From positions 1,568,001 to 1,632,000 of the forward strand of contig OZ242260.1 of assembly GCA_965207065.1 (NCBI GenBank): a stretch of DNA of 64,000 bases, read 5' to 3'. The notes below the pieces were generated by a model. It was not told the DNA's origin and did not search any database. It worked only from the letters and a program-made list of their open reading frames with translations. Shown here piece after piece: positions 2,610 to 25,136 of this stretch (positions are counted from its first letter, which is position 1; each line of letters starts with the position of its first letter). The position numbers were made by a program, and so were the translations under genes. The stretch comes from a bacterium. Lineage in GTDB: Bacteria > UBA8248.

Positions 2610-4172
<1,563 letters not shown>

Positions 4173-4209
4173 ATCGTTACTTGGGACATGAGGCGCAAGG
4201 AGAGATTTG

Positions 4210-4941
4210 ATGGACAGAGCGATTTGGGCGACGTGGTACGACCTGCCCGCCGAGGGGGCGAACGAGTACATCGCATGGCTGCACGAAGTGCATCTGCCCG
4301 AGATGCTGGAGCGATCCGGCTACCTCTGGGCGGCGCACGTGGACAACGACAAGAGCGAGGAGCGCAGGCAAAACGTGAACCGGCGCCTCACGCACACCGA
4401 CGACCCCTCCGTGCCCACGGGCAACGGGTATCTCATGCTCTTCGGCGCCGAGAGCGTCCACACGTTCCTGAATCCCTCTCCTGCGCAGTTGGCCGAAAAA
4501 TGGGGGCCGGATGAGCGCGAGATGCTGGGGATGCGCGCAGGCGTGCGCGAGTGCGTTTTCGTGGAGACGGGCCGGATCGACGGTCCCGAGATAGCGCAGC
4601 GCGCCCCGGGCATCACGCCGGGCCCCAGGGTCCAGATGGGGAGCTTCAACAGCAACGCGCTCGAGAACGAGGAGGGCATGGGCGCGTGGTACGTGCAGCT
4701 TCGCTTTCCGCGCATGCAGACCCTGGAGGGCTGCGTGGGCATGCGCAAGCTGGTTTCCGTTAGCGGGTGGGCCAAGCACGCCGTGCTCTATGAGTTCGAC
4801 CTGAACACATCCGTCGAGCATTATTTCCAGAAAGAACTCGAGAGCGAGGACTGGTCGCGCGAGATGGTGGGCAGCCTCGTTCACGCGCCCGGCTCCCCGA
4901 GCACCGGAAAGCGCATCTGGCCGCCGGTCGATTCGCCTTGA
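4210..4941 (+). CDS. Hypothetical protein, probably a duplicated dimeric alpha-beta barrel (EthD/DUF4286-like)
   Basis: Two related halves, EYIAWLHEVHLPEML and MGAWYVQLRFPRM; host-like codon usage. Confidence 0.6.
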   Translation: MDRAIWATWYDLPAEGANEYIAWLHEVHLPEMLERSGYLWAAHVDNDKSEERRQNVNRRLTHTDDPSVPTGNGYLMLFGAESVHTFLNPSPAQLAEKWGPDEREMLGMRAGVRECVFVETGRIDGPEIAQRAPGITPGPRVQMGSFNSNALENEEGMGAWYVQLRFPRMQTLEGCVGMRKLVSVSGWAKHAVLYEFDLNTSVEHYFQKELESEDWSREMVGSLVHAPGSPSTGKRIWPPVDSP

Positions 4942-5625: not shown

Positions 5626-6615
5626 CTATTTCTTCTTCACGCCGATGCTGGCGAAAATCTTCCCGAAACGATTATATTCATCCGCGAGGTCTTTTTTGAG
5701 CGCCTCGCCGTAGAGCGGCGTAGGCACTTCGCCCATTTTGCTGATGAGCCTGCGGTAGGACTTGTTCTTCAGCAGCTTTTTGAAGCCTTCCACGAGAAAA
5801 TCGACGCGGTCCTGCGGGAGACCCTTGGGCCCGATGTAGAAGCGCTTCGAAGCCAGTATGAAGTCCACCCCGTTTTCCTTCATGGTCGGAACCTTGGGGA
5901 ACAGTGGCACACGCTTCTCCGAGCAGACGCCCAGGATGTTCAACTGCCCGCGCTTGTAGCGTCCCAGCGTGCCGCCCGTTGCGGGAAGCGCGCCCGCGCT
6001 GTCCACGTGGCCGCCGAGCATGGCGCGGAAGGCGGGGCCGCCGCCCTTGAAGGGAATGTGGTTCAGCTTGATGCCCGTGTCGGCCATGATCTTGAGGATC
6101 ATCAGATGCCCCGTGCCGTAAACCCCCGAGGAGCCGTAGCTCACTTTCCCCGGGTTTTTCTTGGCCGCCGCTTCGAATTCCTTGAAATTCTTCCAGGGCT
6201 TCGACGCCGGGGAGACCATCATGTAGTCCGCCTTGTTGATCATGAAAATGGGCACGAAGTCCTTGAGCGGGTGGTAGCCCATGTTGCGCACGTGCGGGCC
6301 GATGGTGAGGTGGGAAGCGGAGGCCAGCATGATGGTGTGGCCGTCGGGCTTCGCGCGCTTGAGCGCCGTCATCCCGATCTTGCCGCCGCCGCCCGGCATG
6401 AGCTGCACGATCATCGGCTGGCCGAAATAGTCGTTGGCCACGCTCGCCACGGCGCGGGAGTTCATGTCGTGCGAGCCGCCCGCGCCCAGGGCCACGATAA
6501 CGCGGATGGGCTTCCACGGAAACTTTCTGGCGGCGTCGGCGGGCGTCGCGCTCGTGAGGAAAACGAGTGCGAGCGCAAGCGCGAGTCCTGCCGGTAGCAT
6601 TTTCGTGATTTTCAT
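5626..6615 (-). CDS. tctC: Tripartite tricarboxylate transporter substrate-binding protein (TctC/Bug)
   Basis: Start reassigned to MKITKML (signal peptide, RBS GGAG); PIRVIVALGAGG, PGGGG, KPDGHT, HIPFKGGG. Confidence 0.9.
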   Translation of the reverse strand: MKITKMLPAGLALALALVFLTSATPADAARKFPWKPIRVIVALGAGGSHDMNSRAVASVANDYFGQPMIVQLMPGGGGKIGMTALKRAKPDGHTIMLASASHLTIGPHVRNMGYHPLKDFVPIFMINKADYMMVSPASKPWKNFKEFEAAAKKNPGKVSYGSSGVYGTGHLMILKIMADTGIKLNHIPFKGGGPAFRAMLGGHVDSAGALPATGGTLGRYKRGQLNILGVCSEKRVPLFPKVPTMKENGVDFILASKRFYIGPKGLPQDRVDFLVEGFKKLLKNKSYRRLISKMGEVPTPLYGEALKKDLADEYNRFGKIFASIGVKKK

Positions 6616-9720: not shown

Positions 9721-10377
9721 ATGTTCCAGAGAATCTTTTTCGCGGCGATCGTCTCGGGCGTCATCGCGGGGCTTTTCGCCACCGCGGTGCAGTCGACTCA
9801 GGTCATTCCCTTGATAGTCGAGGCGGAAAAATACGAGCGGCGAGAACCTGTCCCTATCCCCCAAACCCACGAAGACAACGTGGATGAGGGAGGGGACTCC
9901 TCGCGTCTGGCGCTCACCCTGGTTTCGAACGTCGTATCGGCGATAGGCTTCGCTCTTTTGCTCGTCGGTTGTTTCGCCCTTCACGGAAACGTGGACTGGC
10001 GGCGGGGGATCCTCTGGGGAGCGGGCGGTTTCGTTGTTTTCTCTCTCGCACCCGCAGTGGGTTTGCCGCCCGAACTCCCAGGTGTCGACGCGGCCTCCCT
10101 GCCGCACAGACAGATTTGGTGGATTCTCACCGTGGCGGCCACGGCGGCGGGCCTCGCCCTGTTGGCCTTCAAGCCGGGAGCAGCCTTCAAGGCGCTGGGC
10201 GTCGTCCTCATCGTCTTGCCGCACCTCCTCGGCGCCTCACACCCCGAAGCGGGCGGCGGACCGGTTCCCCGGGCGCTTCTCGAGAGGTTCATCCTCACCG
10301 CGCTCATGGCTTCGGCCGCCTTCTGGGTCGTTCTGGGCCTTTGCGCGGGCTATTTCTTCAACCGTTTGAAGGGGTGA
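9721..10377 (+). CDS. cbtA: Cobalt transporter subunit CbtA family protein
   Basis: Start MFQRIFFAA; PLIVEAEKYE, APAVGLPPELPG, RQIWW, PHLLGA. Confidence 0.85.
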   Translation: MFQRIFFAAIVSGVIAGLFATAVQSTQVIPLIVEAEKYERREPVPIPQTHEDNVDEGGDSSRLALTLVSNVVSAIGFALLLVGCFALHGNVDWRRGILWGAGGFVVFSLAPAVGLPPELPGVDAASLPHRQIWWILTVAATAAGLALLAFKPGAAFKALGVVLIVLPHLLGASHPEAGGGPVPRALLERFILTALMASAAFWVVLGLCAGYFFNRLKG

Positions 10378-10869
10378 GGAAGGGGATTGTTGAACTCCCC
10401 CCTCGTTCGTGTTTGGCTCGTAGGGGCTGTTCGCGGACGGCCCTCCCCGGAGAAAGCGGGCGCTTCACGAATTCCCCCTCCACTCGGCTTGGACCCAAAA
10501 ACCATCGTTCCGGAGTCAGACCCGATCAATGCGGGCGGGTTCGGTCCCACCGGTGCGGCAGCGGGCTTCGCAGAACACCTGACGCCCTCATCCCGAGCAA
10601 CCCCCCCCTGCCCCCCCTTGTCAGGGGGTCTTTTTCAATAACCCCGGTGAGGAACGGTGTCGAGGATCTGCCGGGGTTGACGGTTCGGTGCCACGGTAAA
10701 TCTCTCGCCGTAACTTCGTCGTTCAGTGTATAAAACACGCCAAAAAGTCAGTGATTAGCGGCCAAATCACGATATATGGTTTTTTCTACGAATATTCCCC
10801 CAGGTTCTGACCCTGCCGGCAATTCCATAACCCATTGTAAAATATGCCGTTCGTGAATTCCTCCAGAAT

Positions 10870-10885
10870 TGGCGCATATTTTGCT
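10870..10885 (+). promoter_or_regulatory. Sigma54 -24/-12 promoter
   Basis: TGGCGC-ATATT-TTGCT, close to the TGGCAC-N5-TTGCW consensus, about 60 bp before an ATG. Confidence 0.75.
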
Positions 10886-10943
10886 TCAGAATGAGGGAAG
10901 AGCAGCTGCCTGGTTCCCGGAGTGAGCAGGAAAGGGGGATGAG

Positions 10944-11144
10944 ATGGAATTTCTAAGCAGCTATTTCATGGTGGCGCTTCCTGTATTCATCGCATTCGTC
11001 GCGATTTGGTGGTTCTTGACTATCTACGTTCTGGCGAGTTCCATCAGGAGCGCCTCCCGCGTCAATGATATCGAGACGCACCAAGCCGGACCGAAGCGAT
11101 CGAACGCCGACGCACGGCAGCCGAATTTACGCAAAGCCGCCTAG
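10944..11144 (+). CDS. Single-TM microprotein (66 aa) ending LRKAA
   Basis: Purine-rich RBS; paralog of 11557-11757. Confidence 0.75.
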   Translation: MEFLSSYFMVALPVFIAFVAIWWFLTIYVLASSIRSASRVNDIETHQAGPKRSNADARQPNLRKAA

Positions 11145-11377
11145 AAACATGGGTTGCACGTTCATGTAGCGAGTAGATAGAACCTGCGGTCGACAGGGGC
11201 GCCACCTTGGATGGCGCACAAGAAGCAATTGCCGTTTTGGGTTTGCCGCCCGAACGAACGGCCCCTCACAGTTTTGCTCTTGCCCTGTCTACTTTGGTGG
11301 CCCTTCTCTGTTTCGGGAAAGCCGCCAGGCTTGATTCGCCATATCGTTTCGGACAAAAAGTCAGCGATAATCAGTAA

Positions 11378-11397
11378 AATTACGATATATCGTAATT
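11378..11397. promoter_or_regulatory. Perfect 20-bp palindrome, candidate bEBP upstream activating sequence
   Basis: AATTACGATATATCGTAATT about 120 bp upstream of the predicted sigma54 start; degenerate copy at 10764-10783. Confidence 0.6.
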
Positions 11398-11481
11398 ATG
11401 GGCCATAATTTAATTCATCCTGCAAACCATTTCCCGTTGTAAAACCTTGTAAGTTAGCTGGTTTCTGTGAATTTCCAGTTT

Positions 11482-11497
11482 TGGCACGAATATTGCT
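11482..11497 (+). promoter_or_regulatory. Sigma54 -24/-12 promoter
   Basis: TGGCACGAATATTGCT, consensus match. Confidence 0.85.
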
Positions 11498-11556
11498 TAT
11501 AAATATAGACAAAGGAGTTTTCTGAGTACCGCAGTATGAGGGAAAGGAGGCGCGAG

Positions 11557-11757
11557 ATGGAATTCATCAAGATGTACGCAATGGCGGGGCTTCCGGTTTT
11601 ATTCGTATTCGCCGCGATTTGGTGGTTCATGACCTCCAGCATCATCCATCAGCCTCGGGCGAAAGCAGCTCAGACGAATGACGCCAGGATAGCCCTGGTC
11701 GAAACGAAACTGCTGGACGCCATCAACCCGGAATCGGAATTGCGGAAAGCCGCCTAG
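11557..11757 (+). CDS. Single-TM microprotein (66 aa) ending LRKAA
   Basis: RBS AGGAGG; MEFIKMYAMAGLPVLFVFAAIWWF aligns with MEFLSSYFMVALPVFIAFVAIWWF. Confidence 0.78.
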   Translation: MEFIKMYAMAGLPVLFVFAAIWWFMTSSIIHQPRAKAAQTNDARIALVETKLLDAINPESELRKAA

Positions 11758-11794
11758 AGACGTGGCTCAGGAATTCAGGAAACGGAGAGAAACG

Positions 11795-12265
11795 ATGTAC
11801 GAGCGAATACTGATTCCCCTGGACGGTTCGGAAGAGGCGGAAGCCGCCGTGCATGAGGTGGTCCACCTCTCGATGAACCCGCAAGTTGTTCATCTGCAAC
11901 TGGTGGAAAACGGCGTCATGCAGTCGCGGCAGCTGGAAGGCTACACGGTGTACGCCGATCAGATTCACGATGCGCGCGCCAGGTTCGGCGATGCGTATCT
12001 CGAACCCTTGCGTCGGATGCTGGGAGACCGGGGCCTGCGCGTCGAGGTTTCCGTGACGAACGGCGCGCCGCTGCATGAGGTAGCCGGGACGGCGGAGAAA
12101 CTGGACGCCGACCTCATTCTCCTCGGCGCCGGAGAGGGAGGATGGCTGAGGCGGCGCATCGGGCTGTCGCACATCGCCCCGCGTCTCGCGAAGAAAGTGA
12201 AAGCCCACGTCCTGCTGGTGCAGGGAGGGGCGAAACAGAAAGAGGCTCTCCAGAGAGCCGCATAG
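11795..12265 (+). CDS. Universal stress protein (UspA family)
   Basis: MYERILIPLDGS, ADLILLGA, HVLLV. Confidence 0.88.
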   Translation: MYERILIPLDGSEEAEAAVHEVVHLSMNPQVVHLQLVENGVMQSRQLEGYTVYADQIHDARARFGDAYLEPLRRMLGDRGLRVEVSVTNGAPLHEVAGTAEKLDADLILLGAGEGGWLRRRIGLSHIAPRLAKKVKAHVLLVQGGAKQKEALQRAA

Positions 12266-12447
12266 AAAATCCTGCCGTGGCCCAACCAATGGGCCGCGCC
12301 CCACATACCTCCCCCTCGGTGGCCCACGCCATCCGGCAACGGGCCGCCGGGAGGGGAATCCTCACTTTCCATGATCAGAGTCGTTCCTTAGCCAACACCC
12401 GGATGCTAGAATCTCGCCACATTCATGATTCGCGTAAGGAGTGAAGG

Positions 12448-13344
12448 GTGAGAATCGGTATCCTGTGTCGGGACAAGACCCTACACGGCGTGCGCAGAAT
12501 TTCAGAATCCGCAAGGAGCAGGAAGCACCGGGTGCGCGTGCTGGATCCGTATCGCTTTCTGCTGAAGCTGAACGATGGAGAAATATCGCTCGAATTCCGC
12601 GGAAAACCCTTTACGAGGGCGGACGTATATCTTCCGCGCCTCGGGGCGAACATATCCGAGCATTCCCTGGCGCTCATCCGCCACCTGGAAGCTTCCGGCG
12701 CATTGGTGATCAACGGCTCAGGCGCGATCGAGACGGCGCGGGACAAGCTGCGAACGCTTCAGCTTCTGGCGCAAGAGGGACTTCCCGTACCGAATACTGC
12801 CTTCGCGCCCGACCCGGCCTATCTGCGCGCTGCGCTGGATAGCGTTGGAGGCGCGCCCGTCGTCATGAAGCTGCCGCGCGGCACGCAGGGCAAGGGCGTC
12901 ATGCGCGCCCACGACGCCCAGGAAGCGCAGGCCATATCCGATGTGATGTGGAACCTGCAGCGGGACGCCATCGTCCAGGAATACGTCGAAGAGGCCAGGA
13001 AGGGGGATTTGCGCGTCATCGTCGTGGGCGGTGAAGTGGCGGCCGCCGTAAGAAGGCGCGCCTCGCGGGATGAGTTTCGCACGAACCTGCATCGCGGCGG
13101 CTCCGTCAAGAAAGTCACGCCTGCACGGCATGTGGCGGAACTCGCCAGAGACGCCGCAAAACTCTGCGGCCTTGAGATCGCGGGCGTGGATTTGCTCGAG
13201 ACGAGCAGGGGCCCTCTGGTCCTGGAGGTGAACGCCGCGCCCGGCTTCGAGGGCGTGGAGCGCGCCGGCGGTCCCGAGGTCGCGCCGGTCATCATCGACT
13301 ACGTCGAGCGGCGTGTTGAGGAGCGTAAGAAGAAAAAGAGGTGA
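12448..13344 (+). CDS. rimK: RimK family ATP-grasp alpha-L-glutamate ligase
   Basis: ARDKLRTLQLL, GTQGKGV, EFRTNLHRGG, LEVNAAPG. Confidence 0.85.
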   Translation: MRIGILCRDKTLHGVRRISESARSRKHRVRVLDPYRFLLKLNDGEISLEFRGKPFTRADVYLPRLGANISEHSLALIRHLEASGALVINGSGAIETARDKLRTLQLLAQEGLPVPNTAFAPDPAYLRAALDSVGGAPVVMKLPRGTQGKGVMRAHDAQEAQAISDVMWNLQRDAIVQEYVEEARKGDLRVIVVGGEVAAAVRRRASRDEFRTNLHRGGSVKKVTPARHVAELARDAAKLCGLEIAGVDLLETSRGPLVLEVNAAPGFEGVERAGGPEVAPVIIDYVERRVEERKKKKR

Positions 13345-13402: not shown

Positions 13403-14731
13403 TTGAGGAGACTCGACTTGAGCGACATCGACGCCATATGCCTTGCGGCGAGGAGTGCGGCCCTCGCGCTTGCGCCCCTGACGAACGAGGTGCGGAATCG
13501 TGCCTTGGCCGCCATGGCGGACGCGATTGACGAAAACTCGGGGTCTATCCTCGAGGCGAATGCGGAAGACGCCGCCGCGGCGGAACCCTTGGTCGCGAGC
13601 GGGGAGATGTCCGAGCCTTTGCTGAGACGCCTGGAACTGAGCGAGCGCAAAGTCGCGCAGATGGCGGACGGCGCGCGCGCGGTGGCCGCCCTGCCCGACC
13701 CCCTGGGGGTGGCGCGCATGGCTACCCTGCTCGATGAGGAGTTGACGCTCAGGCGGGTCACCTGTCCCCTGGGCGTGGTCGCCGCCGTGTTTGAATCCCG
13801 GCCCGACGCGCTGGTCCAGATCGCATCGCTGTGCCTGAAATCCGGCAACGCCTCCATCCTGAAGGGGGGCCGCGAGGCAGCGCACACGAACCGCCTGATG
13901 TCCGGGCTTTTAAGAGACGCGGCGGCTTCGTCCGGCGATGTGCCCGCCGACGCCTCCCAACTCGTCGAGGCGCGCGAGGACGTGCAGGCCCTCCTTTCGC
14001 GCGACGATGCGGTCGACCTGCTCATACCGCGCGGGAGCAACGAGTTCGTCCGCTACATCAAGCAGCACTCGAACATCCCGGTGCTCGGCCACGCGGACGG
14101 CATCTGCCACCTCTACGTGGACGAGGCGGCTGACACCGAGATGGCCGTACGGCTGACGTTCGACGCCAAGACGCAATACCCCGCCGTCTGCAACGCCATC
14201 GAGACGCTCCTGGTGCACGAGAAAAAAGCGGGCGAGTTCCTGCCCCTGGCCGCCGAGGCGCTCAAGGAAAAGGGAGTGGCCATCCGGGGCTGTGATGCCA
14301 CGCGGGCGATTCTCGAAAGCGCAGGCGCGGCTTCTGAAGAGGACTGGAATACGGAATATCTGGACCTCATCCTCTCCGTCCGGGTGGTGGAATCTCTGGC
14401 CCAGGCCGTTGATCACATCAACCGCTACGGCTCGCGCCACACCGACGCCATCGTCACGGCGGACGAGGCGGCGGCGCGGACGTTTCTTTCGAGAGTGGAC
14501 GCCGCCAGCGTCATGTGGAACGCGTCCACCCGCCTGGCGGATGGTTTCCGCTACGGTTTCGGCGCCGAGGTGGGCATCGCCACGGACAAGATTCACGCAC
14601 GCGGCCCCGTGGGTCTGGAAGGCCTGGTGACCTACAAGTACCAGCTCGAGGGAAACGGCCAACTCGTCTCCGACTACGAGGGGGCCGATGCGCGGGTCTT
14701 CCTCCACCGGCCGATTCCCATAAACGAATAG
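13403..14731 (+). CDS. proA: Gamma-glutamyl phosphate reductase
   Basis: PLGVVAAVFESRP, ILKGGREA, CNAIETLL, NASTRLADG, HARGPVGL; exact start uncertain. Confidence 0.93.
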   Translation: MRRLDLSDIDAICLAARSAALALAPLTNEVRNRALAAMADAIDENSGSILEANAEDAAAAEPLVASGEMSEPLLRRLELSERKVAQMADGARAVAALPDPLGVARMATLLDEELTLRRVTCPLGVVAAVFESRPDALVQIASLCLKSGNASILKGGREAAHTNRLMSGLLRDAAASSGDVPADASQLVEAREDVQALLSRDDAVDLLIPRGSNEFVRYIKQHSNIPVLGHADGICHLYVDEAADTEMAVRLTFDAKTQYPAVCNAIETLLVHEKKAGEFLPLAAEALKEKGVAIRGCDATRAILESAGAASEEDWNTEYLDLILSVRVVESLAQAVDHINRYGSRHTDAIVTADEAAARTFLSRVDAASVMWNASTRLADGFRYGFGAEVGIATDKIHARGPVGLEGLVTYKYQLEGNGQLVSDYEGADARVFLHRPIPINE

Positions 14732-17277: not shown

Positions 17278-17642
17278 TCCCCATCATCGTCGGGTGAGAG
17301 TTTCCGGTTGAAATAATAGTCCGCGTTCAGCCAGATGGCGCGGGAGTAGCGGAACGAGAATAGCGGAATCAGGATGCAAAGCCCACCCCATATGACGAGC
17401 TGCGCCGCAAGGCCGGGCGCGAGGAATATCTCGGTGAGCAGATAGCCGCCCAGGCAGATGATGATCGTGATGGCGTAGTTGATGTAGATGGCGCCGACGA
17501 AATAGCCCTGCTCACGCTCGAAGAGGTAGCCGCAGCCCGGGCATCGTTCGTGCATGCGGAATGGGCCGGTGAAAAGGGGTTCGGGGCATCTCGGGCATAT
17601 CAGGGCGCACCCGCGTCTTAAGGCGCGCAGGAATTCTCTCAT
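17274..17642 (-). CDS. DUF983-like zinc-ribbon membrane protein
   Basis: Start MREFLRALRRG (ATGA overlap); CPRC...CPGC, EREQGYFVGA, two TM. Confidence 0.75.
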   Translation of the reverse strand: MREFLRALRRGCALICPRCPEPLFTGPFRMHERCPGCGYLFEREQGYFVGAIYINYAITIIICLGGYLLTEIFLAPGLAAQLVIWGGLCILIPLFSFRYSRAIWLNADYYFNRKLSPDDDGE

Positions 17643-18064
17643 GCCCCCGGGTAGAAGACGTAGAGTATCAAGTAGACCGCGACGCCCGTGAACGAAACAT
17701 AGAGCCAGATGGGGTAGGTCCAGCGGGCGATGCGGCGGTGCCGCTCGAAATCCTCCCGCCACGCCCTGTAGAGGGTGATGACCGCCATGGGCGGCACCAG
17801 GACCGCCAGGGCCGAATGCGTGATGAGGATGATGAAATACACCGGACGAATCCAGCCTGTGCCGGTGAAGCCCACCGAGCCCACGTTGAAGTGGTAGACG
17901 AGATAGGAGATGAGGAATAGAGTGGAGACCGCGAACGCGCTCACCATGAGACGCTTGTGGGCTTCCACGTCTTTGACGTAGATGCGCCTCATCCCCGCCA
18001 TGAGCAGGAATGCGCACGTGAGGTTCAACAAGGCGTTCAGGGTGGGCAGATATCGAAGCGACAT
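17639..18064 (-). CDS. DUF420 (CtaM/YozB-like) oxidase assembly membrane protein
   Basis: LNALLN, AHKRLM, FLISYLVYH, HRRIARWTYPIWLYVS. Confidence 0.88.
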   Translation of the reverse strand: MSLRYLPTLNALLNLTCAFLLMAGMRRIYVKDVEAHKRLMVSAFAVSTLFLISYLVYHFNVGSVGFTGTGWIRPVYFIILITHSALAVLVPPMAVITLYRAWREDFERHRRIARWTYPIWLYVSFTGVAVYLILYVFYPGA

Positions 18065-18110
18065 GAATTATGTATTTTTTATATAACGTCTGGCGTAGGG
18101 TAGGAGCGGC

Positions 18111-18407
18111 CTAAAAATCCGGCAGCACCATCAACACCACGAACACGCACAGCACGAGCGGTATCATGGCGATGAAGCCCAGCGCCACTTTCTCGAACTT
18201 CAGGTGCATGAAGTAAAGCGCCACGAGCACCGCCTTGGCCACGGCCATGCCAACGAGGAGCGCCCCCTTCAAAAGCTGCGGATAGGCGGGACTCGCCTGG
18301 GGGATGCCGGCCAGGACCTCGAGTATCGTGAGCGCCAGGAGCCACCAGAAGATGGCCATGTAGTTCACGTGGTGGTCGTCGTGTTCCGAGTGGCTTGCGC
18401 TCGCCAT
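18111..18407 (-). CDS. ctaF: Cytochrome c oxidase subunit IV family
   Basis: His-rich N-terminus, LLALTILEV, AKAVLVALYFMHLKFE. Confidence 0.85.
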   Translation of the reverse strand: MASASHSEHDDHHVNYMAIFWWLLALTILEVLAGIPQASPAYPQLLKGALLVGMAVAKAVLVALYFMHLKFEKVALGFIAMIPLVLCVFVVLMVLPDF

Positions 18408-18464
18408 GATGTATGTGCTCTCCCTCGAACGAACCGGGCGCGCTCAGGCGCTTGCCCGTGATGA

Positions 18465-19088
18465 TTACAGTAGATAAATGAACGTGAAGACGAGAATCCA
18501 GACGAGGTCCACGAAGTGCCAGTAGAGGCCCGCGATTTCCACCTCGTTCCAGTTCGTCGCCGAATAAACGCCCTTTTGGCCGCGCATCGCGATGACGGCC
18601 AGATAGATGACGCCGCCGGTCACGTGCATCCCGTGGAAGCCCGTGATGATGTAGAAGGTGGTGCCGAAGAGGCTGTCGCCCCACTTGTTGGCCGAAAGGT
18701 GGAGGCCCAAATTGATCAGATGGGTCCACTCATAGGCTTGTAAGGCGAGGAATATGAGTCCGCCGCCTACGGTGAGCCACATGTACTTCACCAGGCCCGC
18801 CTGATCGTCATTTTTGATGGCGTCCAGGCCCTTCACCATGGTGACGCTGCTGCATATGAGCAGGAACGTCATGAACGCGGTGAGCGAAATGCCCAGCACG
18901 TCCACGGGCACCGGCCAGTTCTCGCTGTTGCCCCGCATGATGGCGTAGCCCGCCAACAGGGTCCCGAACGACATGGCGTCGCCCGCCAGAAATACCCACA
19001 TCCCCAGCTTGCCCCAGCTTTCGGGGGTAAGCGGAGTTTCCGCTGGTTCCACTCCGTGGGCGTGATCCACGGCGGCGGCATCAGTCAC
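18465..19088 (-). CDS. ctaE: Cytochrome c oxidase subunit III (copy 2)
   Basis: KLGMWVFL, LICSSVTM, TGFHGMHV, LYWHFVDLVW. Confidence 0.9.
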   Translation of the reverse strand: MTDAAAVDHAHGVEPAETPLTPESWGKLGMWVFLAGDAMSFGTLLAGYAIMRGNSENWPVPVDVLGISLTAFMTFLLICSSVTMVKGLDAIKNDDQAGLVKYMWLTVGGGLIFLALQAYEWTHLINLGLHLSANKWGDSLFGTTFYIITGFHGMHVTGGVIYLAVIAMRGQKGVYSATNWNEVEIAGLYWHFVDLVWILVFTFIYLL

Positions 19089-19103
19089 TTCGCCTTCTCC
19101 TTC

Positions 19104-19340
19104 TTATTCAGAAAATATGCCTTTGTTCGCCGGCTCTCTCTTTGCGCGCCGGGAATTGTATACGAAATAACCGCCCGTGACCGTTGCGATCGCGAACGGC
19201 ATGCTGATCAGAAAGCCCATGCTCCAGAGAAAACCAGGCTCCGAGTCCACCCCGCACACCGCGCAGGCGAAGGCGTGATCCTGACTTGAGAGGACGACGC
19301 CAAAGGCTGTGGCGATGAGAATGTAAACGACCGGTTTCAC
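19104..19340 (-). CDS. Small exported CxxC membrane protein (78 aa)
   Basis: GTG start with RBS AGGAG; signal peptide ending AFA followed by CAVC, then one TM. Confidence 0.7.
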   Translation of the reverse strand: MKPVVYILIATAFGVVLSSQDHAFACAVCGVDSEPGFLWSMGFLISMPFAIATVTGGYFVYNSRRAKREPANKGIFSE

Positions 19341-19411
19341 CTGATTCTCCTTGAAGCGAGTATGCCACCCGCTTCGGGAAAGTGTCAACGTTTTCAGCGG
19401 TTCCTGCACCG

Positions 19412-20122
19412 CTACAACAGGTAGACCAGATAGAACAGAATCGGCCAAAGCCCAACCACCAGATGCCAGTACATTGCGCATGCGACGACCCCGTTGGGTT
19501 TGCGGGCGGAGTATTTTCCCAGATGCGCGCGAACGAGTACCACGACCAGCCAGACGACCGCGCTCAGCACGTGAACCCCGTGCGTTCCGATGATGGTGTA
19601 GAATAGCGATCCGTAGACGTTCGCCGACGCGGTAAGCCCGAAGCTGACCAGGCGCACCCACTCGTAGCCCTGTATGGCGAGGAAGACGACGCCCAGAACG
19701 CCCGTGATGGTAAGCAGACGCGGCAGGGACTTCGCGTCGCCTCTTTTCAGCGCAAGCTGCGCGCGGACCATCGTGTAGCTGCTGAGCAGCAGGAAGGCCG
19801 TGTTGACGGCGGTGACTTCCACTGGCAGGCGCGGCTGGAATGGCGGCGGCCAGGGCTTTCCGCTGAAGCGAAAGACCAGAAAGGCCCCAATGAGGCCCGA
19901 GAAGAACATGATTTCAGCCGCGATCAAGACCAGCATGGCGAGCTGGGTGTTTCCAAGCAAAGGTTTTCCGGCGGGAGGCGTATCCGGGGAGTCGTCTCCT
20001 CCTCCGTTTCCGTTGCCCCCGTTATCGTCGGGTGGTTCCGGCGGAGGCGGAGGAGGCGCGCCTTCCCATCGCTCCAGTTTTTCTTTCGGAGGCGCATCGA
20101 GTACCGGATTCAACGAGGCCAC
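19412..20122 (-). CDS. ctaE: Cytochrome c oxidase subunit III (copy 1)
   Basis: AEIMFF, NTAFLLLSS, GTHGVHV, MYWHLV; Pro/Gly-rich N-terminal extension. Confidence 0.9.
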   Translation of the reverse strand: MASLNPVLDAPPKEKLERWEGAPPPPPPEPPDDNGGNGNGGGDDSPDTPPAGKPLLGNTQLAMLVLIAAEIMFFSGLIGAFLVFRFSGKPWPPPFQPRLPVEVTAVNTAFLLLSSYTMVRAQLALKRGDAKSLPRLLTITGVLGVVFLAIQGYEWVRLVSFGLTASANVYGSLFYTIIGTHGVHVLSAVVWLVVVLVRAHLGKYSARKPNGVVACAMYWHLVVGLWPILFYLVYLL

Positions 20123-20128
20123 TCCCGT

Positions 20129-20239
20129 CTAGTTCCTGATGATGGCCACGGTCCACGCGAACGCGGCCAGGCACACGATGAAGAGAAAAAGCAAAAGCCC
20201 GGTGAGCCTGATCCTGTTTTTTGTTTGTGGCTTGTCCAT
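20129..20239 (-). CDS. 36-aa single-TM peptide within the cox operon
   Basis: MDKPQTKNRIRLTGLLLFLFIVCLAAFAWTVAIIRN, RBS GAGG; fills the gap between ctaB and ctaE. Confidence 0.6.
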   Translation of the reverse strand: MDKPQTKNRIRLTGLLLFLFIVCLAAFAWTVAIIRN

Positions 20240-20247
20240 CGGCAGCC

Positions 20248-21138
20248 TCATCCGAATATCATGCCCAGCAGGAGTGCCGGCAGATAAATCAGCGAGAAGT
20301 AGAACAACCGCCTCGCGGACGTAGGGCCTTTTTCCCTCGCCATGTGAACGCCGTAACCGAAATATACGAACCCCAGGATGGTGGAGACCGCGAAATAGGC
20401 GGGGCCGGCCATGCCGATCAGGGCCGGGGCCATTCCTGCGGGAATGAGCGCCATGCAATAGGAGATAACCTGCCTGCCCGTGCTGGCGCCGCCCGGGTCC
20501 TCTACGGGCAGGAGCTTGATGTCCGCTCTCGCGAAATCCTCGCGGTACATGACGGCGATCGCCAGCGCGTGGGGGATCTGCCAGAGGAACATGATGCAGA
20601 ACACCACGAACGCCTCGACCGAGAGCGCGCCCGTGGCCGCCGCCCAGCCGATGACCGGCGGCATGGCGCCCGGAACCGCGCCCACCACGCTGTTGAACGA
20701 GGTCGTTCGTTTTAGCGGCGTATACAGGAAAAGATACAGCCCGCCGGTGGCGGCGATGAGGAGCGCCGTGAAGGGGTTCACGAAAATGGCCAGATAGGCC
20801 ACGCCCAGCAGCATGACGGCGGAGCCGAACAGGAGCGCGTCGAACTTGAGAAGCCGCCCGTCTGGCAGCGGGCGTTTTTGCGTCCGGATCATCCGCGCGT
20901 CAAGGTCTTCTTCGGATGCCTGGTTCAGCGCCAGCGCGCCGCCCGTCGCAAAGGCCGAGCCGATGAGCGTGTGGATGAGCAGGGTAATATCGAGCCCTGC
21001 GCCCGAGGCGAGGTAGAAGCCCGCGGCGGTGACCACCAGCACCATCGGCAGGATGCGCGGTTTCGTGAGTTCCAGGTAATCCACCGCCCTTCGCCTGGCG
21101 GCGTCGAGATTCATCGCCTCGGTGCGGAAATTCGTCAT
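20248..21138 (-). CDS. ctaB: Protoheme IX farnesyltransferase (heme o synthase)
   Basis: LTKPRI, DARMIRTQKRPLP, YTPLKR, FLWQIPH. Confidence 0.93.
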   Translation of the reverse strand: MTNFRTEAMNLDAARRRAVDYLELTKPRILPMVLVVTAAGFYLASGAGLDITLLIHTLIGSAFATGGALALNQASEEDLDARMIRTQKRPLPDGRLLKFDALLFGSAVMLLGVAYLAIFVNPFTALLIAATGGLYLFLYTPLKRTTSFNSVVGAVPGAMPPVIGWAAATGALSVEAFVVFCIMFLWQIPHALAIAVMYREDFARADIKLLPVEDPGGASTGRQVISYCMALIPAGMAPALIGMAGPAYFAVSTILGFVYFGYGVHMAREKGPTSARRLFYFSLIYLPALLLGMIFG

Positions 21139-22079
21139 GCGCGCGCGCCTCCCGCCGCAACGGGCGCTTCGGTGTCCTTCAAGGCGAACAGGCCGCTTTT
21201 ATTGAGGCGAAGGGCCACGACGAGCGAGGCCGCGAAGAGCATCGCGCCCACCACGACGTGGGCGGAGGTTATCGCGATGATGAGAACGGGCGTGAAGGCC
21301 TCGCCCATGGCGGCGTATTTCCCGACCCACGAGGCGCCGCCGAGCGCGAGTTGAACGATTAGCAGGACCCACAGGAAGTTCGCCTCTTTCGCCAATGCGC
21401 CGGGATTCGGCAGCTTCAGGGTCTTATAAGAGAGGAGGATGACGTGGATAGTGCTCAACACGGCGAAGAGCAGATGGGCGTCGAGCCTGTTTCCGGTGTG
21501 GCGCAGCACCGCGCCGAAGATAATCTGGACGTATAGCAGCGAAACGGTGATGAGGCCCAGTCTAGCCAGTCCCTTGTCCCCCGTTTCACCTGTATCATCT
21601 CGCCAGCCGCGTGAGGTGAACAATGCCAGGCTCACCATGAGTGCGAAGAAAACTTGCGCGACGCAGGCGTGGACGATGGCCAGGTTGAGTTTGATGAGAA
21701 CCACCCGCATCCCGCCGAGCACGCCCTGTAAAATCACCAGGCCGACGGCGAATGCGCCCAGCCTGCGCATCCATTTACGTTCATTGGCTTTCCAGATGGC
21801 GGCGGCCGTCAGGATGGTGAGAAACCCCACCAGCGAGCCGAGCAGGCGGTGCGAGTGTTCGATGAAAACGCCGCCCACCATCTTCGACCACGGGAAGAGG
21901 AACATGTTGTAGCCGAACGTGTTGGGCCAGTCGGGAACCGCGAGGCCCGAACCCGTGCTCGTCACCAGACCGCCGGCGAGGATGAGCACGACGGTGAAGA
22001 CGCAGGTCAGCAGGGCGAAACGATGGGGCCAGCCTCCCCCATTTTCGGCGGGAAGGCCGGCATGGCGATCAGATGCCAT
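21135..22079 (-). CDS. ctaA: Heme A synthase (CtaA/Cox15)
   Basis: GGLVTSTGSGLAVPDWP, EHSHRLLG, QGVLGG, conserved His residues. Confidence 0.88.
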   Translation of the reverse strand: MASDRHAGLPAENGGGWPHRFALLTCVFTVVLILAGGLVTSTGSGLAVPDWPNTFGYNMFLFPWSKMVGGVFIEHSHRLLGSLVGFLTILTAAAIWKANERKWMRRLGAFAVGLVILQGVLGGMRVVLIKLNLAIVHACVAQVFFALMVSLALFTSRGWRDDTGETGDKGLARLGLITVSLLYVQIIFGAVLRHTGNRLDAHLLFAVLSTIHVILLSYKTLKLPNPGALAKEANFLWVLLIVQLALGGASWVGKYAAMGEAFTPVLIIAITSAHVVVGAMLFAASLVVALRLNKSGLFALKDTEAPVAAGGARA

Positions 22080-22111
22080 GCGCGTTCTCTCCCGGGGTAA
22101 TTGCGGCGGCG

Positions 22112-24073
22112 CTAGTGTCCGGCTTCGGCGAGCGCCGGGTCGATGGGCTCGGTCTGCGGTGCCCAGTCCGCTTCCTCGCCGGGGACGCTGTATTCATAGG
22201 GTCCGCGCTGGACCACCGGCAGCGTGGGGCCGAAGTTCCCGTGCGGCGCCGGCGTGGGAGCCACCCACTCGAGCGTGTTGGCGTCCCAGGGGTTCTGGGG
22301 CGCGTCGGCTCCCAGCGGAGCCATGTTCTTCTCGAGATAGCGGTAGATCCAGACCGCAAGCGCCACGAAGACGATCGTGCCCACGATGCGTCCACCCGTC
22401 GAGGGTACGGGCTCCATCAGGCCCTCGAACATCACCGCCGCGCTCTTGTAGCCGATGAAGCCGACGATGAGAGCCGAGACCGCCTGGGTGAGCACGCGGA
22501 ACCACTTCGCGTTCCAGCGGAAGACGGTGGCGAAGAAGTTGAACACGAAGGGAATCTGCGAGAGCCCCAGCGCAAGCGCCGAGAGGGTGATGATCACGTT
22601 GATCGGCTGCATCCCTTGCAAGAACTCATACTGCATGGGGTTGTAGATGCGCCGCATGTGGCCGCCCACGCCCAGGATGTGCATCGGGAAGAACACCATG
22701 TTGAAGAAGATGAACGTGAGCCAGAAGTGCACCTTGCCCAGCGCTTCGTCCATGGACCTTCCGAACATTTTCGGGAACCAGTGCTGTATTCCGCCAAAGA
22801 GCGCGAATACGCTGCCGCCGAAGATGACGTAGTGGAAATGCGCCACGATGAAGTAGGTGTCGTGTATGTAGATGTCCACCACGTTCGACGCCATGAAGAT
22901 GCCGCTCAGCCCGCCGATGACGAACAGGATGACGAACGCCAGGGCATGGAGCATCGGCACGGTGAAGCGGATCGAACCGCCCCACAGGGTGCCCAGCCAG
23001 TTGAATGTCTTGATCGCCGATGGTATCGCGATGACGAGCGTCGTCATCATGAAGGCCGAACCAAGTGCGGGGTTCATGCCGGACTGGAACATATGGTGGC
23101 CCCAGACGATCCACGAAAGGAAGGCGATGGCGAGCATGGCGTACACCATGGCCCGGTAGCCGAAGATCGGTTTTCTGCAGTAAACGGGCAACAACTCCGA
23201 AGCGATGCCCATGCCCGGAAGTATGAGAATGTAGACTTCCGGGTGCCCGAAGTACCAGAACAGGTGCTGCCAAAGGAGGGGTTCGCCCCCCTTCGCCGGG
23301 TTGAAGAAGTTGGTCTCGAACACGCGGTCGAAGATCATCATCGCGGCCGCGGAGCCCAGAATGGGCAGGGCCAGCAGTCCCAGGATGGCGGTGACGAACA
23401 ATGACCACACGACCAGCGGCACCCGGAACCAGGTCATGCCCTCGGTGCGCATGTTGATGAGCGTGGTGATGTAGTTGATCGAGCCCATGAGCGAAGAGAA
23501 ACTCAGCACGAACAGACTTAATGCCCATAATGTCTGCCCCATGAATACGCCCGTGTATTCCGGAATGGTGGATAACGGCGCGTAGCCTGTCCAGCCGGCG
23601 GCGGCGTGTCCTCCCTCGACCAGGAACCCCGCGCTCATGATGACGGCGCCCAGAACGGCGACCCAGAAGGAAAGCATGTTCAATACCGGGAACGCCATGT
23701 CGCGCGCCCCGATCATCAGCGGGATGAGGAAGTTCCCGAAACAGCCCACCAGTATCGGCATCACGACCAGGAACACCATGATGGTCGCGTGCATGGTGAC
23801 CGCCATGTTGTAGAAGTTCGGCGTGACGTACCCCTCGGGCATGCCTTCGCTCTCGTCCGATATCCATTCTAAGCCCCAGACCTGCGTTTCCGGCCAGGCG
23901 AGTTGCCAGCGGAAGATCAGGGCGAGAATTCCGCCCACGACCATCATGATGAGGCCGAGCCAGAGGAACTGCCTGGCGATCATCTTGTGGTCCAGCGAGA
24001 AGACGTATGTGCTCCAGAACCCACCTTCGTGGTGGTCGTGAGCGCCGTGTGCGTCTGCCGTGGTTTCGCTCAT
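22112..24073 (-). CDS. ctaD: Cytochrome c oxidase subunit I, A1 type
   Basis: DHKMI, HATIM, ARDMAFP (D-channel), WYFGHPEVY, WGHHMF, AIK (K-channel), VAHFHY, MRR. Confidence 0.96.
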   Translation of the reverse strand: MSETTADAHGAHDHHEGGFWSTYVFSLDHKMIARQFLWLGLIMMVVGGILALIFRWQLAWPETQVWGLEWISDESEGMPEGYVTPNFYNMAVTMHATIMVFLVVMPILVGCFGNFLIPLMIGARDMAFPVLNMLSFWVAVLGAVIMSAGFLVEGGHAAAGWTGYAPLSTIPEYTGVFMGQTLWALSLFVLSFSSLMGSINYITTLINMRTEGMTWFRVPLVVWSLFVTAILGLLALPILGSAAAMMIFDRVFETNFFNPAKGGEPLLWQHLFWYFGHPEVYILILPGMGIASELLPVYCRKPIFGYRAMVYAMLAIAFLSWIVWGHHMFQSGMNPALGSAFMMTTLVIAIPSAIKTFNWLGTLWGGSIRFTVPMLHALAFVILFVIGGLSGIFMASNVVDIYIHDTYFIVAHFHYVIFGGSVFALFGGIQHWFPKMFGRSMDEALGKVHFWLTFIFFNMVFFPMHILGVGGHMRRIYNPMQYEFLQGMQPINVIITLSALALGLSQIPFVFNFFATVFRWNAKWFRVLTQAVSALIVGFIGYKSAAVMFEGLMEPVPSTGGRIVGTIVFVALAVWIYRYLEKNMAPLGADAPQNPWDANTLEWVAPTPAPHGNFGPTLPVVQRGPYEYSVPGEEADWAPQTEPIDPALAEAGH

Positions 24074-24175
24074 GGTTACCTGCATCCCTCGTAAGTTCGG
24101 TTTATCGGAGGAAAACTCCCGACGACCCGTTCAAGATATGAAAGAGGGCGCGGGCGCCCTCATGAATACAGCCGT

Positions 24176-24844
24176 TTATTTGTCCTTCTCGGCCCAGGCT
24201 TTCTTGCGCCACTTCGCGTAGTCGGCCTCGGAGTGTACGATGAACTCCCCGTTCATGCCGGAGTGCCCGAAGCCGCAGAGCTCCGCGCAGGGGATTTCGT
24301 ATTTGCCCACCTTGGTCGGCGTAAACCACAGCGGAATCGTCCGGCCCGGAACCACATCCTGCTTCATGCGGGTATGAGGTATGAAGAAGCTGTGGATGAC
24401 GTCCGCCCCCTTGAGCGAGATGAGCAACTGCTTGTTGACGGGCACGTTCAACTGGTTGTCGAGCACCAGGTCGTCCTTGGTGCCGAACTTCTTGTCGTCT
24501 CCAGGGTAGCGGACGATCCAGTTGAACTGCTTGCCGGTAACCTCGACGCGCACGTGCGGGTTCTGGGGGATCGCCAGCTTGAGCTTTGCCCAGGAGGTCT
24601 GTGTCATCAGGACGAAGACGAGCAGGATGAGGGTGGGGATCACCGTCCAGAGAATCTCCAGCGTGTTGTTGCCGTGCATGTATTTCGCCTTCACGCCGGG
24701 TTTGGCGCGGTACTTGATGAGGAAATAGATCATCGCGGCGGCGACCATGACGAAGACGACCACCGTCAGGTAGTAGGAGATATAGAAGAGAAAATCGATT
24801 TCCTCTCCTTCGAGAGAAATATTCTCGGGGAGCCAACTCATCAT
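24176..24844 (-). CDS. ctaC: Cytochrome c oxidase subunit II (CuA; no fused cytochrome c)
   Basis: LEILWTVIP, DVIHSF, CAELCGFGHSGM. Confidence 0.94.
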   Translation of the reverse strand: MMSWLPENISLEGEEIDFLFYISYYLTVVVFVMVAAAMIYFLIKYRAKPGVKAKYMHGNNTLEILWTVIPTLILLVFVLMTQTSWAKLKLAIPQNPHVRVEVTGKQFNWIVRYPGDDKKFGTKDDLVLDNQLNVPVNKQLLISLKGADVIHSFFIPHTRMKQDVVPGRTIPLWFTPTKVGKYEIPCAELCGFGHSGMNGEFIVHSEADYAKWRKKAWAEKDK

Positions 24845-25136
24845 GATGAAGCGTATCCTCCGGGCCAAGCCGCGTGCAGGGCGAAGCGCACGGACGCTTC
24901 CCCATAACCGCGAAAAATGTATGGATTCCCTATAACCGCACGGGGAGTCTAAAGGATAAGCGAGAGAGTTTTCAAGCGCGCGCGGGAAAATAATTTGCAT
25001 AGAGGACGGGCTGTTCCCGTCTCCTCGGAGGTGAGACGCCCGGCGCATCCCCCGCCCCTTGACCCTGCTCCCGCCCGGGGGTAGTGTCCCCGTTTTGTTT
25101 GCAAGACGCGCGTCTTGCGGGCTATAAAGGAAGAGC

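Follow-up and report, generated by a model that had tools for sequence, protein, structure and literature searches.

Conserved Ala-Ala tails on the membrane microproteins and universal stress protein of a sigma-54 module: candidate degrons

Introduction

Why should unrelated proteins encoded side by side end in the same two residues? The question is raised by three small plus-strand genes in a 64,000-nucleotide stretch of a Nitrospinota genome (lineage UBA8248; contig OZ242260.1 of assembly GCA_965207065.1, positions 1,568,001 to 1,632,000), which we call the window and whose own numbering we use throughout. Two of the genes are open reading frames (ORFs) for paralogous membrane microproteins of 66 residues, A (10944-11144) and B (11557-11757), and the third encodes a universal stress protein (USP; 11795-12265, 156 residues). 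All three proteins end in L-x-[KR]-A-A. A preliminary description of the locus had pointed to the two paralogs, to the Ala-Ala (AA) ends that they have in common with the USP, to a -24/-12 promoter in front of each microprotein gene and to the homology of the two upstream regions, all of which the sequence confirms. It had read these features as an undescribed, short-lived stress-response module driven by sigma-54, with selection on the tail.

Conservation of the Ala-Ala tails

As judged from the coding sequences, selection acts on the protein tail, and does so on two unrelated proteins of one operon, because the terminal residues stay while codons, stop codons and preceding linkers vary. All 23 distinct microprotein coding sequences of the genus (54-66 residues) end in AA, preceded by LRK, WRK, WQK, LQK or WRE; the middle of the protein varies in length and the tail stays. 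Across these sequences the arginine is encoded by CGG, CGC, CGA, CGT or AGA, the last alanine by GCC, GCT or GCG, and the stop codon is TAG, TGA or TAA. A metagenomic relative ends in LRRAA, and the microproteins of five other genera likewise keep the dipeptide (RRAA, HRAA, RQAA or RKAA; once RVA). The preliminary description had staked its proposal on conservation of the tail in homologs, and the tail is indeed conserved there.

The USP behaves in the same way with other residues. Among orthologs sampled from six genera, 18 of 19 end in AA (QRAA, SRAA, DRAA, QTAA, QKAA, TQAA, TKAA, KAAA, APAA or GAGAA) and one in KRVA; the USP of one further genome, G049, which was read separately, ends in KKAA. 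The last codon of the orthologs is any of GCA, GCC, GCG and GCT, each of the three stop codons occurs, and the linkers vary by indels. Relatives drawn from databases, which all belong to the same orthogroup and thus give no outgroup rate of AA ends among unrelated USPs, end in AA in 31 of 37 cases. Five of the 37 are of aberrant length, being fragments or frameshifts; among the 32 of normal length, 30 end in AA, one in VA and one in IA.

Within the host genome the full motif is rare. A crude set of 3797 ORFs contains 58 (1.5%) that end in AA and four that end in hydrophobic-x-[KR]-A-A, three of these four being A, B and the USP; permuted versions of the motif are found at 0, 0, 1 and 3 ends.

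The microproteins and the universal stress protein

Microproteins A and B have 25 of 66 residues in common (E 3e-14). Two parts account for the likeness, the hydrophobic helix at the N-terminus (MEF..Y.M..LPV..F.AIWWF.T) and the final five residues (LRKAA); the middle is divergent. Their DNA can be aligned over a stretch that begins about 200 nt before each ORF and ends 8 nt beyond each stop codon, which makes the pair a tandem duplication, 613 nt long, of promoter and gene together. The proportion of synonymous differences (pS) between A and B is 0.50, and comparison of this genome with G014, of the same genus, gives ratios of nonsynonymous to synonymous differences (pN/pS), based on small counts, of 0.30 for A and 0.17 for B. 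The middle had been described as free. That description was overstated: proteins of the B lineage share a conserved middle, and in the other genera the last ~17 residues are a conserved charged helix.

A Shine-Dalgarno sequence precedes each gene, GGAAAGGGGG at 10929-10938 (+) for A and GGAAAGGAGG at 11541-11550 (+) for B. The MEF start is supported, because GGAAAGGAGG stands just upstream of it in all orthologs and an in-frame upstream ATG is unconserved. Microprotein A, a lineage-specific paralog, has one N-terminal transmembrane (TM) helix and the tail NLRKAA; B, the conserved member, has a TM helix at about residues 2-30, predicted cytoplasmic helices and the tail ELRKAA. An AlphaFold2 (AF2) model of B, of modest confidence (mean 69), contains helices at residues 2-30, 34-56 and 58-65. 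The charge bias of the helix flanks favours a topology in which the N-terminus is outside and the C-terminus is cytoplasmic: among 25 tailed microproteins the net charge of the N-terminal flank is zero or less in 22, and the 15 residues after the helix hold 1-5 Lys or Arg in every one.

Neither microprotein has a family match in Pfam or NCBIfam, a cluster look-up gave them no name in any source, and the look-alikes of B in the ESM Atlas all score below 0.9, with no family emerging. The search for more copies that the preliminary description had proposed recovered only A and B in their own genome, a third match (E 0.53) being noise, together with homologs in the genus and in other genera. Two known families were considered and rejected. 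As CbtB, the partner of the adjacent CbtA, A and B fail to match PF09489 even at E <=10; as PspB, A reaches E 0.49 over its TM segment (10.9 bits against a cut-off of 25.6) and B nothing, and a PspB scan of the genome did not pick up either ORF.

The USP gene starts 37 nt past B, and its product matches the Pfam Usp domain (PF00582; 3.6e-14, 53.9 bits against a cut-off of 24) and has no predicted signal peptide. Its AF2 model (pLDDT 77, pTM 0.75) shows alternating strands and helices. Because the last strand of the model spans residues 138-143 and residues 146-156 have a pLDDT below 50, the tail, a 13-residue C-terminal extension ending in ALQRAA, is predicted to reach past the fold and to be accessible. 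Glycines are present in the putative ATP-binding region, GAGEGGWLRRRIGLSHIA, with a spacing that does not exactly fit the motif G-2x-G-9x-G-[ST]. Besides this gene, the genome has two with USP domains: one of a single domain, whose product ends in ESVES, and a tandem-USP reading frame.

Evidence for sigma-54 control

Sigma-54 control of the module, as the preliminary description had it, is strongly supported at the level of sequence by a conserved promoter architecture and a linked activator gene. The promoter of A, TGGCGCATATTTTGCT (TGGCGC-N5-TTGCT), lies at 10870-10885 and that of B, TGGCACGAATATTGCT (TGGCAC-N5-TTGCT), at 11482-11497, both on the plus strand and each 73-74 nt upstream of its ORF. 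The -24/-12 pattern has three matches in the window against 0.14 expected from shuffled sequences. In all 22 upstream regions, drawn from 20 genomes, GG-N10-GC stands 72-79 nt ahead of the ATG, and the same 22 also keep a palindrome pair and a conserved middle box.

The palindrome pair, with the consensus ACGATAAATCGT-N6-ACGATATATCGT, lies about 100-130 nt upstream of the promoter and is the putative activator site. The upstream regions of A and B each bear a ACGATATAT[C/G]GT site, of which 0 are expected by chance. For A the site spans 10749-10785 (+), with a degenerate first half-site and a second site, ACGATATATGGT, at 10769-10780; for B it spans 11362-11398 (+) and comprises GCGATAATCAGT at 11364-11375 and the perfect palindrome ACGATATATCGT at 11382-11393. 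When the 4.48-Mb genome was scored with a weight matrix of the palindrome block, B ranked best (53.6) and A second (37.6), against 24.3 for the best unrelated site. The ACGATATATCGT palindrome recurs upstream of the promoter, exactly or with one to three changes, in seven loci from five other genera. One of these genomes, G049, has two perfect copies 18 bp apart, and an eighth other-genus locus, in G048, is without it.

The middle box lies between the activator site and the promoter, at 10826-10855 (+) for A and 11436-11469 (+) for B, as given by the columns conserved among the 22 regions, and has the core ..ATAAAGCCTTGTAAGTTTGATGGTT... IHF usually binds and bends sigma-54 promoters between activator site and promoter, and by its position the middle box is a candidate IHF site.

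The genome contains rpoN and only two full-length sigma-54 activators. One of them is encoded in the window (2610-4172, +) and is the candidate activator of the module: an enhancer-binding protein of 520 residues with GAF, sigma-54 AAA+ and HTH_8 domains (Pfam Sigma54_activat 2.5e-71, GAF and HTH_8). In NCBIfam it falls below the NifA, FhlA and NorR equivalog cut-offs, and solved structures give weak matches to its GAF domain (best E 0.0013, to the GAF domains of PtsP and of a sigma-54 regulator), with no clue to a ligand. In those 14 genus genomes in which both genes could be placed, the ortholog is found 1.2-8.3 kb upstream of the microprotein gene; in two further genera, g3 and g19, it is directly adjacent, 0.32 kb (G046) and 0.45 kb (G024) upstream. 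This synteny and co-conservation suggest that activator, site and sigma-54 promoter form one unit. Taken alone, the regulatory half of our explanation is very probably correct.

A search of 10350-12600 for sigma-70 promoters found none. Genome-wide, a loose -24/-12 pattern has 28 matches, of which six are intergenic and four of these, including the promoters of A and B, have an ORF within 400 nt. With two full-length activators and four gene-proximal intergenic consensus promoters, the whole-genome sigma-54 regulon looks very small. A hemN-like radical-SAM gene (1350-2513, -) is divergent from the activator gene in all 13 family loci examined, and just downstream of the activator gene lies an ORF of 244 codons (4207-4941, +), without a Pfam or NCBIfam family and 91% identical in G010, also of this genus.

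Four RNA libraries from two studies contain contigs 95-99% identical to the stretch; being assembled, these show that a sequence is present and not transcript start, strand, level or absence. X15 (11513-12014) and X18 (11575-12033) span B and the USP gene, and X17 (11919-12365) stops at 12365 and continues into adapter, all of which is consistent with a bicistronic B-USP mRNA ending near 12365. The start of X15 at 11513, downstream of the B promoter, is a hint only. None of the contigs lies on ORF A, cbtA or rimK, an absence that such contigs cannot establish.

Distribution in related genomes

With a 14-sequence profile at E <=0.01, microproteins were matched in 23 of 51 Nitrospinota genomes: the window genome, 20 of 22 further members of its genus, and one each of g3 and g19. 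A HMMER search of 1.84 billion cluster representatives returned 8 clusters; P0029 (E 2.8e-4), a repetitive and unrelated protein, was dropped as spurious. Given these few clusters, the lack of a Pfam or NCBIfam family and the lack of a description in the literature searched, the word "undescribed" was well chosen. Two others of the 8, the A-type metagenome sequences P0027 (119 residues) and P0028 (139 residues), have a frame that runs past the tail position into what appears to be the next upstream region, without a tail; they may be decaying duplicates or frameshifts.

Further loci in other genera were found by tracking the activator into genera without a profile match. The layout common to them is activator, palindrome, sigma-54 promoter, one or more microproteins, USP, RimK and ProA, and it was tracked in this way in g17 (G041, G043), g2 (G055, G056, G023) and g21 (G049). 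In all, five other genera of the family carry divergent AA-tailed microproteins and AA-tailed USPs, with one to three microproteins per operon. A long microprotein type ends in ..RRhNAhhEEEhxRRAA, NYHRAA or FRQAA, and a short type of 40-44 residues ends in RRAA; an extra microprotein in G049 ends in PMRKAA. A third type (loci L045, L047, L049, L050, L051 and L042), of 45-54 residues with one TM helix, sits between tailed microprotein and USP and does not occur in the genus of the window.

Copy A occurs only in the window genome and in G014 among the genomes searched, and a search of the other genus genomes for a remnant of it found none outside G014. On this evidence the twin arrangement is a lineage-specific duplication, and the conserved unit is B plus USP, present in 20 of 22 genomes of the genus; the twin arrangement that gave the preliminary description its name does not carry over to the module at large.

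There are also exceptions. In G048 (g20) the USP is divergent and a tailed microprotein is absent, and G050 (g22, a 2.2-Mb genome) keeps the activator only. Within the genus of the window, a deletion in G010 has removed the microprotein gene together with most of that of the USP; the promoter, the palindrome, an RNA element described below and rimK are kept. At the deleted locus (5630-6100, -, of L059) a frameshifted remnant of the 3' end of the USP gene is left, and the RNA element and rimK are now what the promoter reads into. In G020 (L044, ~2750-2960, -) an internal deletion has shortened the USP to ~72 residues; the protein still ends in ALERAA, and the upstream microprotein is intact.

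The tail as a candidate degron

The explanation that we favour, with somewhat less than even credence, is that the tails may be ssrA-like degrons on a family-specific sigma-54 stress module whose products would be cleared fast. The tmRNA tag of the host is ADNELALAA, and LALAA of the tag, LRKAA of B and LQRAA of the USP can be read directly as one pattern, hydrophobic-x-x-A-A. In the host ClpX, the tag-reading loops GYVG, NPSITRDV and GGRKH are identical to those of the solved ClpX chain 9ndj_F; their mapping to the E. coli residue numbers is putative. According to PMC7652416, GFP-LAA escapes degradation and GFP-YALAA is degraded, which implies that about five exposed residues are needed; PMC12723719 gives the MuA-type C-motif-2 as the basic RRKKAI, which the basic residues at -3 and -4 of the tails also bring to mind.

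In the mechanism that we envisage, the GAF enhancer-binding protein (2610-4172) would bind ACGATATATCGT upstream of the -24/-12 promoter and, on a signal, would turn on a short operon of one or more bitopic microproteins and a cytoplasmic USP. The signal might, as a guess, be low oxygen or nitrosative stress; the hints are weak, namely the strong rise of USPs in the nitrite oxidiser Nitrospira marina when oxygen is low (PMC8115632), and the hemN-like gene that always lies beside the activator gene. A cytoplasmic AAA+ protease would then read the tail, with ClpXP as the first candidate and FtsH as an alternative for the membrane microproteins; the induced proteins would be turned over continuously and cleared soon once transcription stops. 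We infer proteolysis, the inducing signal and the identity of the acting activator; what the sequences show is the anatomy and its conservation, selection on the tail at the protein level, and that RNA libraries contain the B-USP stretch. Since the USP has no signal peptide and the microprotein tails appear from the charge bias to be cytoplasmic, a common reader should be cytoplasmic. Tsp (Prc), which the preliminary description had listed among possible tail readers, is periplasmic and is therefore unlikely to be it.

Several observations weigh against the degron proposal. AA ends are not depleted in the proteome, their 1.5% comparing with ~1.3% expected from single-position Ala frequencies, and AA alone is thus under no strong counter-selection. 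At position -3 the tails here have Lys or Arg, where the tmRNA tag has Leu. The third microprotein type of the other genera, with its WEVF, WEVY, PLI, PLG and SWQI ends, has no AA tail, and in one genus the microprotein ends in RVA and the USP in GAGAA. The module is, to judge from the deletion in G010 and the internal USP deletion in G020, dispensable. An ortholog of the activator persists where the module is missing (G050) or deleted (G010) and may therefore have other targets, and one of the RNA-library contigs, X16 (11403-11768), starts upstream of the promoter.

What else could hold the tail in place? The charged helix and its Ala-Ala carboxylate might be a docking motif that binds a common partner, for example a membrane receptor, or the microprotein might tether the USP. 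A conserved charged helix of ~17 residues (RRhNAhhEEEhxRRAA) exceeds the need of a minimal degron, membrane microproteins are coupled with a soluble USP in all six module genera, and the AF2 model predicts helices in the C-terminal part of B. However, the module has no conserved gene for a candidate receptor, the tail pattern is that of the host's own tmRNA tag, and the USP tail, short, of low confidence and preceded by a variable linker, fits a tag better than an interface; we consider docking unlikely. A role for the microproteins as membrane-anchored decoys or modulators of a protease, abundant competing substrates that would spare other AA- or ssrA-tagged proteins including the USP under stress, seems to us less likely again. 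Lambda CIII and SpoVM act on FtsH in this manner, and the tail common to microproteins and USP, the microprotein copy number of one to three across lineages, as expected of a dosage device, and the tandem duplication with its own promoter in this lineage would all suit such a role. Yet the case is purely one of analogy, and one microprotein type has no tail to offer a protease.

More improbable still is that the Ala-Ala tails are a writable tag, with the RimK-family ligase encoded next door adding glutamates that mask or alter it and turn an ssrA-like degron into a stable end; if true, the lifetime of a sigma-54 stress module would be set after translation. In other bacteria RimK glutamylates ribosomal protein S6 at its C-terminus (PMC10375531). 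The ligase of this host is the sole member of its family in the genome, does not reach the S6-glutamate ligase equivalog (268 against 331 bits), and has as its potential S6 substrate a protein that ends in DDSKS and not in glutamates; its gene comes after that of the USP at all 18 genus loci and at eight of nine other-genus USP loci, the ninth contig ending just past the USP gene. However, proA is equally syntenic, so that inheritance of gene order may account for the adjacency. Between the USP gene and rimK lies a conserved RNA element, which travels with rimK in G048; the RNA pieces end before rimK, and we know of no RimK that accepts an Ala C-terminus. Least probable of all, by a small step, is that the tail has no protein function and is kept by nucleotide constraint, such as translational coupling, RNA structure or gene conversion. 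In its favour, AAAGCCGCCTAGA is almost identical in A and B, with the identity running the 8 nt beyond the stop codon, and the penultimate Ala codon is GCC in 23 of 23 microprotein sequences. The Arg, Lys and last Ala codons nevertheless change synonymously and all three stops are used; AA is retained through other codons in the unrelated USP gene, copy A has no USP following it, and other genera keep AA after quite different preceding sequence. Nor do the two 5' leaders and the region after A fold significantly better than shuffled sequences (z -0.25, -0.22 and +1.25).

Relation to known systems

The nearest relatives of the proposed degrons are the ssrA-like C-motif-1 degrons of ClpXP, for which PMC7652416 and PMC12723719 give a terminal Ala-Ala-COOH and an exposed tail of at least five residues, as in the module, and a hydrophobic residue at -5 in E. 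coli YALAA, as also in this host's LALAA. In contrast, the module has a basic residue at -3, recalling the C-motif-2 of MuA; its tag is genome-encoded on at least three co-regulated proteins, and their degradation is a prediction.

Psp is an envelope-stress operon controlled by sigma-54 and an activator, with the small single-pass proteins PspB and PspC. The module resembles it in its sigma-54 promoter, upstream activator site, middle box, nearby activator gene and combination of bitopic proteins with a soluble effector. Unlike Psp, it has a GAF sensor on the activator, a USP as effector, and AA tails that have no Psp counterpart. Membership in Psp was rejected: PspA was not found in the 96%-complete genome, and no PspB family match was obtained.

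Membrane anti-sigma factors of Mycobacterium tuberculosis are reported to carry a cytoplasmic ssrA-like ClpX tag (bioRxiv 10.1101/491043); those are proteins of normal size, whereas here microproteins of 40-85 residues and of no known family are paired with a USP. The inducible USP of Nitrospira marina (PMC8115632) is, like that of the module, a stress effector in a marine nitrite-oxidiser lineage. It belongs to a different phylum, and the portion of that report considered mentions no sigma-54 link, microprotein partner or AA tail.

Full-text literature searches found no description of the module. Its sigma-54 promoter and activator, its USP and Ala-Ala C-terminal degrons are all of known kinds; what is new is the microprotein family, its fixed pairing with a USP, the operon-wide tail and the proposed pair of activator and site. 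If the tails are degrons, the module would be a compact natural case of a small regulon, membrane microproteins plus a USP, built to be transient, in which a sigma-54 on-switch is combined with a genome-encoded ssrA-like off-switch. A family of one-TM microproteins of 40-85 residues with a clear regulatory context is rare among microproteins, and the locus also offers a candidate pairing of GAF activator and ACGATATATCGT site for a phylum in which genetics is almost absent. Among the members of the lineage are sponge symbionts and marine nitrite oxidisers facing oxygen swings, which lends the module ecological relevance.

The RNA element and neighbouring genes

A two-hairpin RNA element (12276-12365, +) lies directly after the USP stop codon and before rimK, with a fold z of -3.8. 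It is nearly invariant in 13 genus sequences, 72-78% identical in g17 and g20, and more conserved than the flanking genes; five of its 25 base pairs show compensatory change, and it is single-copy in the genome. An Rfam search over 10300-12500 at E <=1 gave no match. The element is either the 3' end of the operon or a leader of rimK, and instead of a terminator it may be a rimK-proA leader, because in G048 it adjoins rimK, far from the USP gene. X18 also holds a piece of 100 nt that covers the element, 12266-12365, at a depth of 84 and with adapter on one side, a candidate small RNA or stable 3' fragment.

Downstream of the element lie the gene of the RimK-family ATP-grasp ligase (12448-13344, +), always on the 3' side of the USP gene, and that of a conserved neighbour, ProA (glutamate-5-semialdehyde dehydrogenase; 13403-14731, +). 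The ligase passes the RimK subfamily cut-off (224.6 against 143.4). Ribosomal protein S6, encoded at G000:C1:3238443-3238850, ends in ...ASDDSKS, without a glutamate end. Upstream of A, cbtA (9724-10377, +) has no adjoining cbtB, the true cbtB (74 bits) lying at G000:C1:282246, 1.3 Mb off; a terminator-like hairpin with a T-run at 10610-10639 (+) would end the cbtA transcript. Further along the window, 17640-25050 (-) holds an ordinary aa3-type cytochrome c oxidase cluster with COX2, COX1, CtaA, CtaB, two COX3, COX4 and DUF420.

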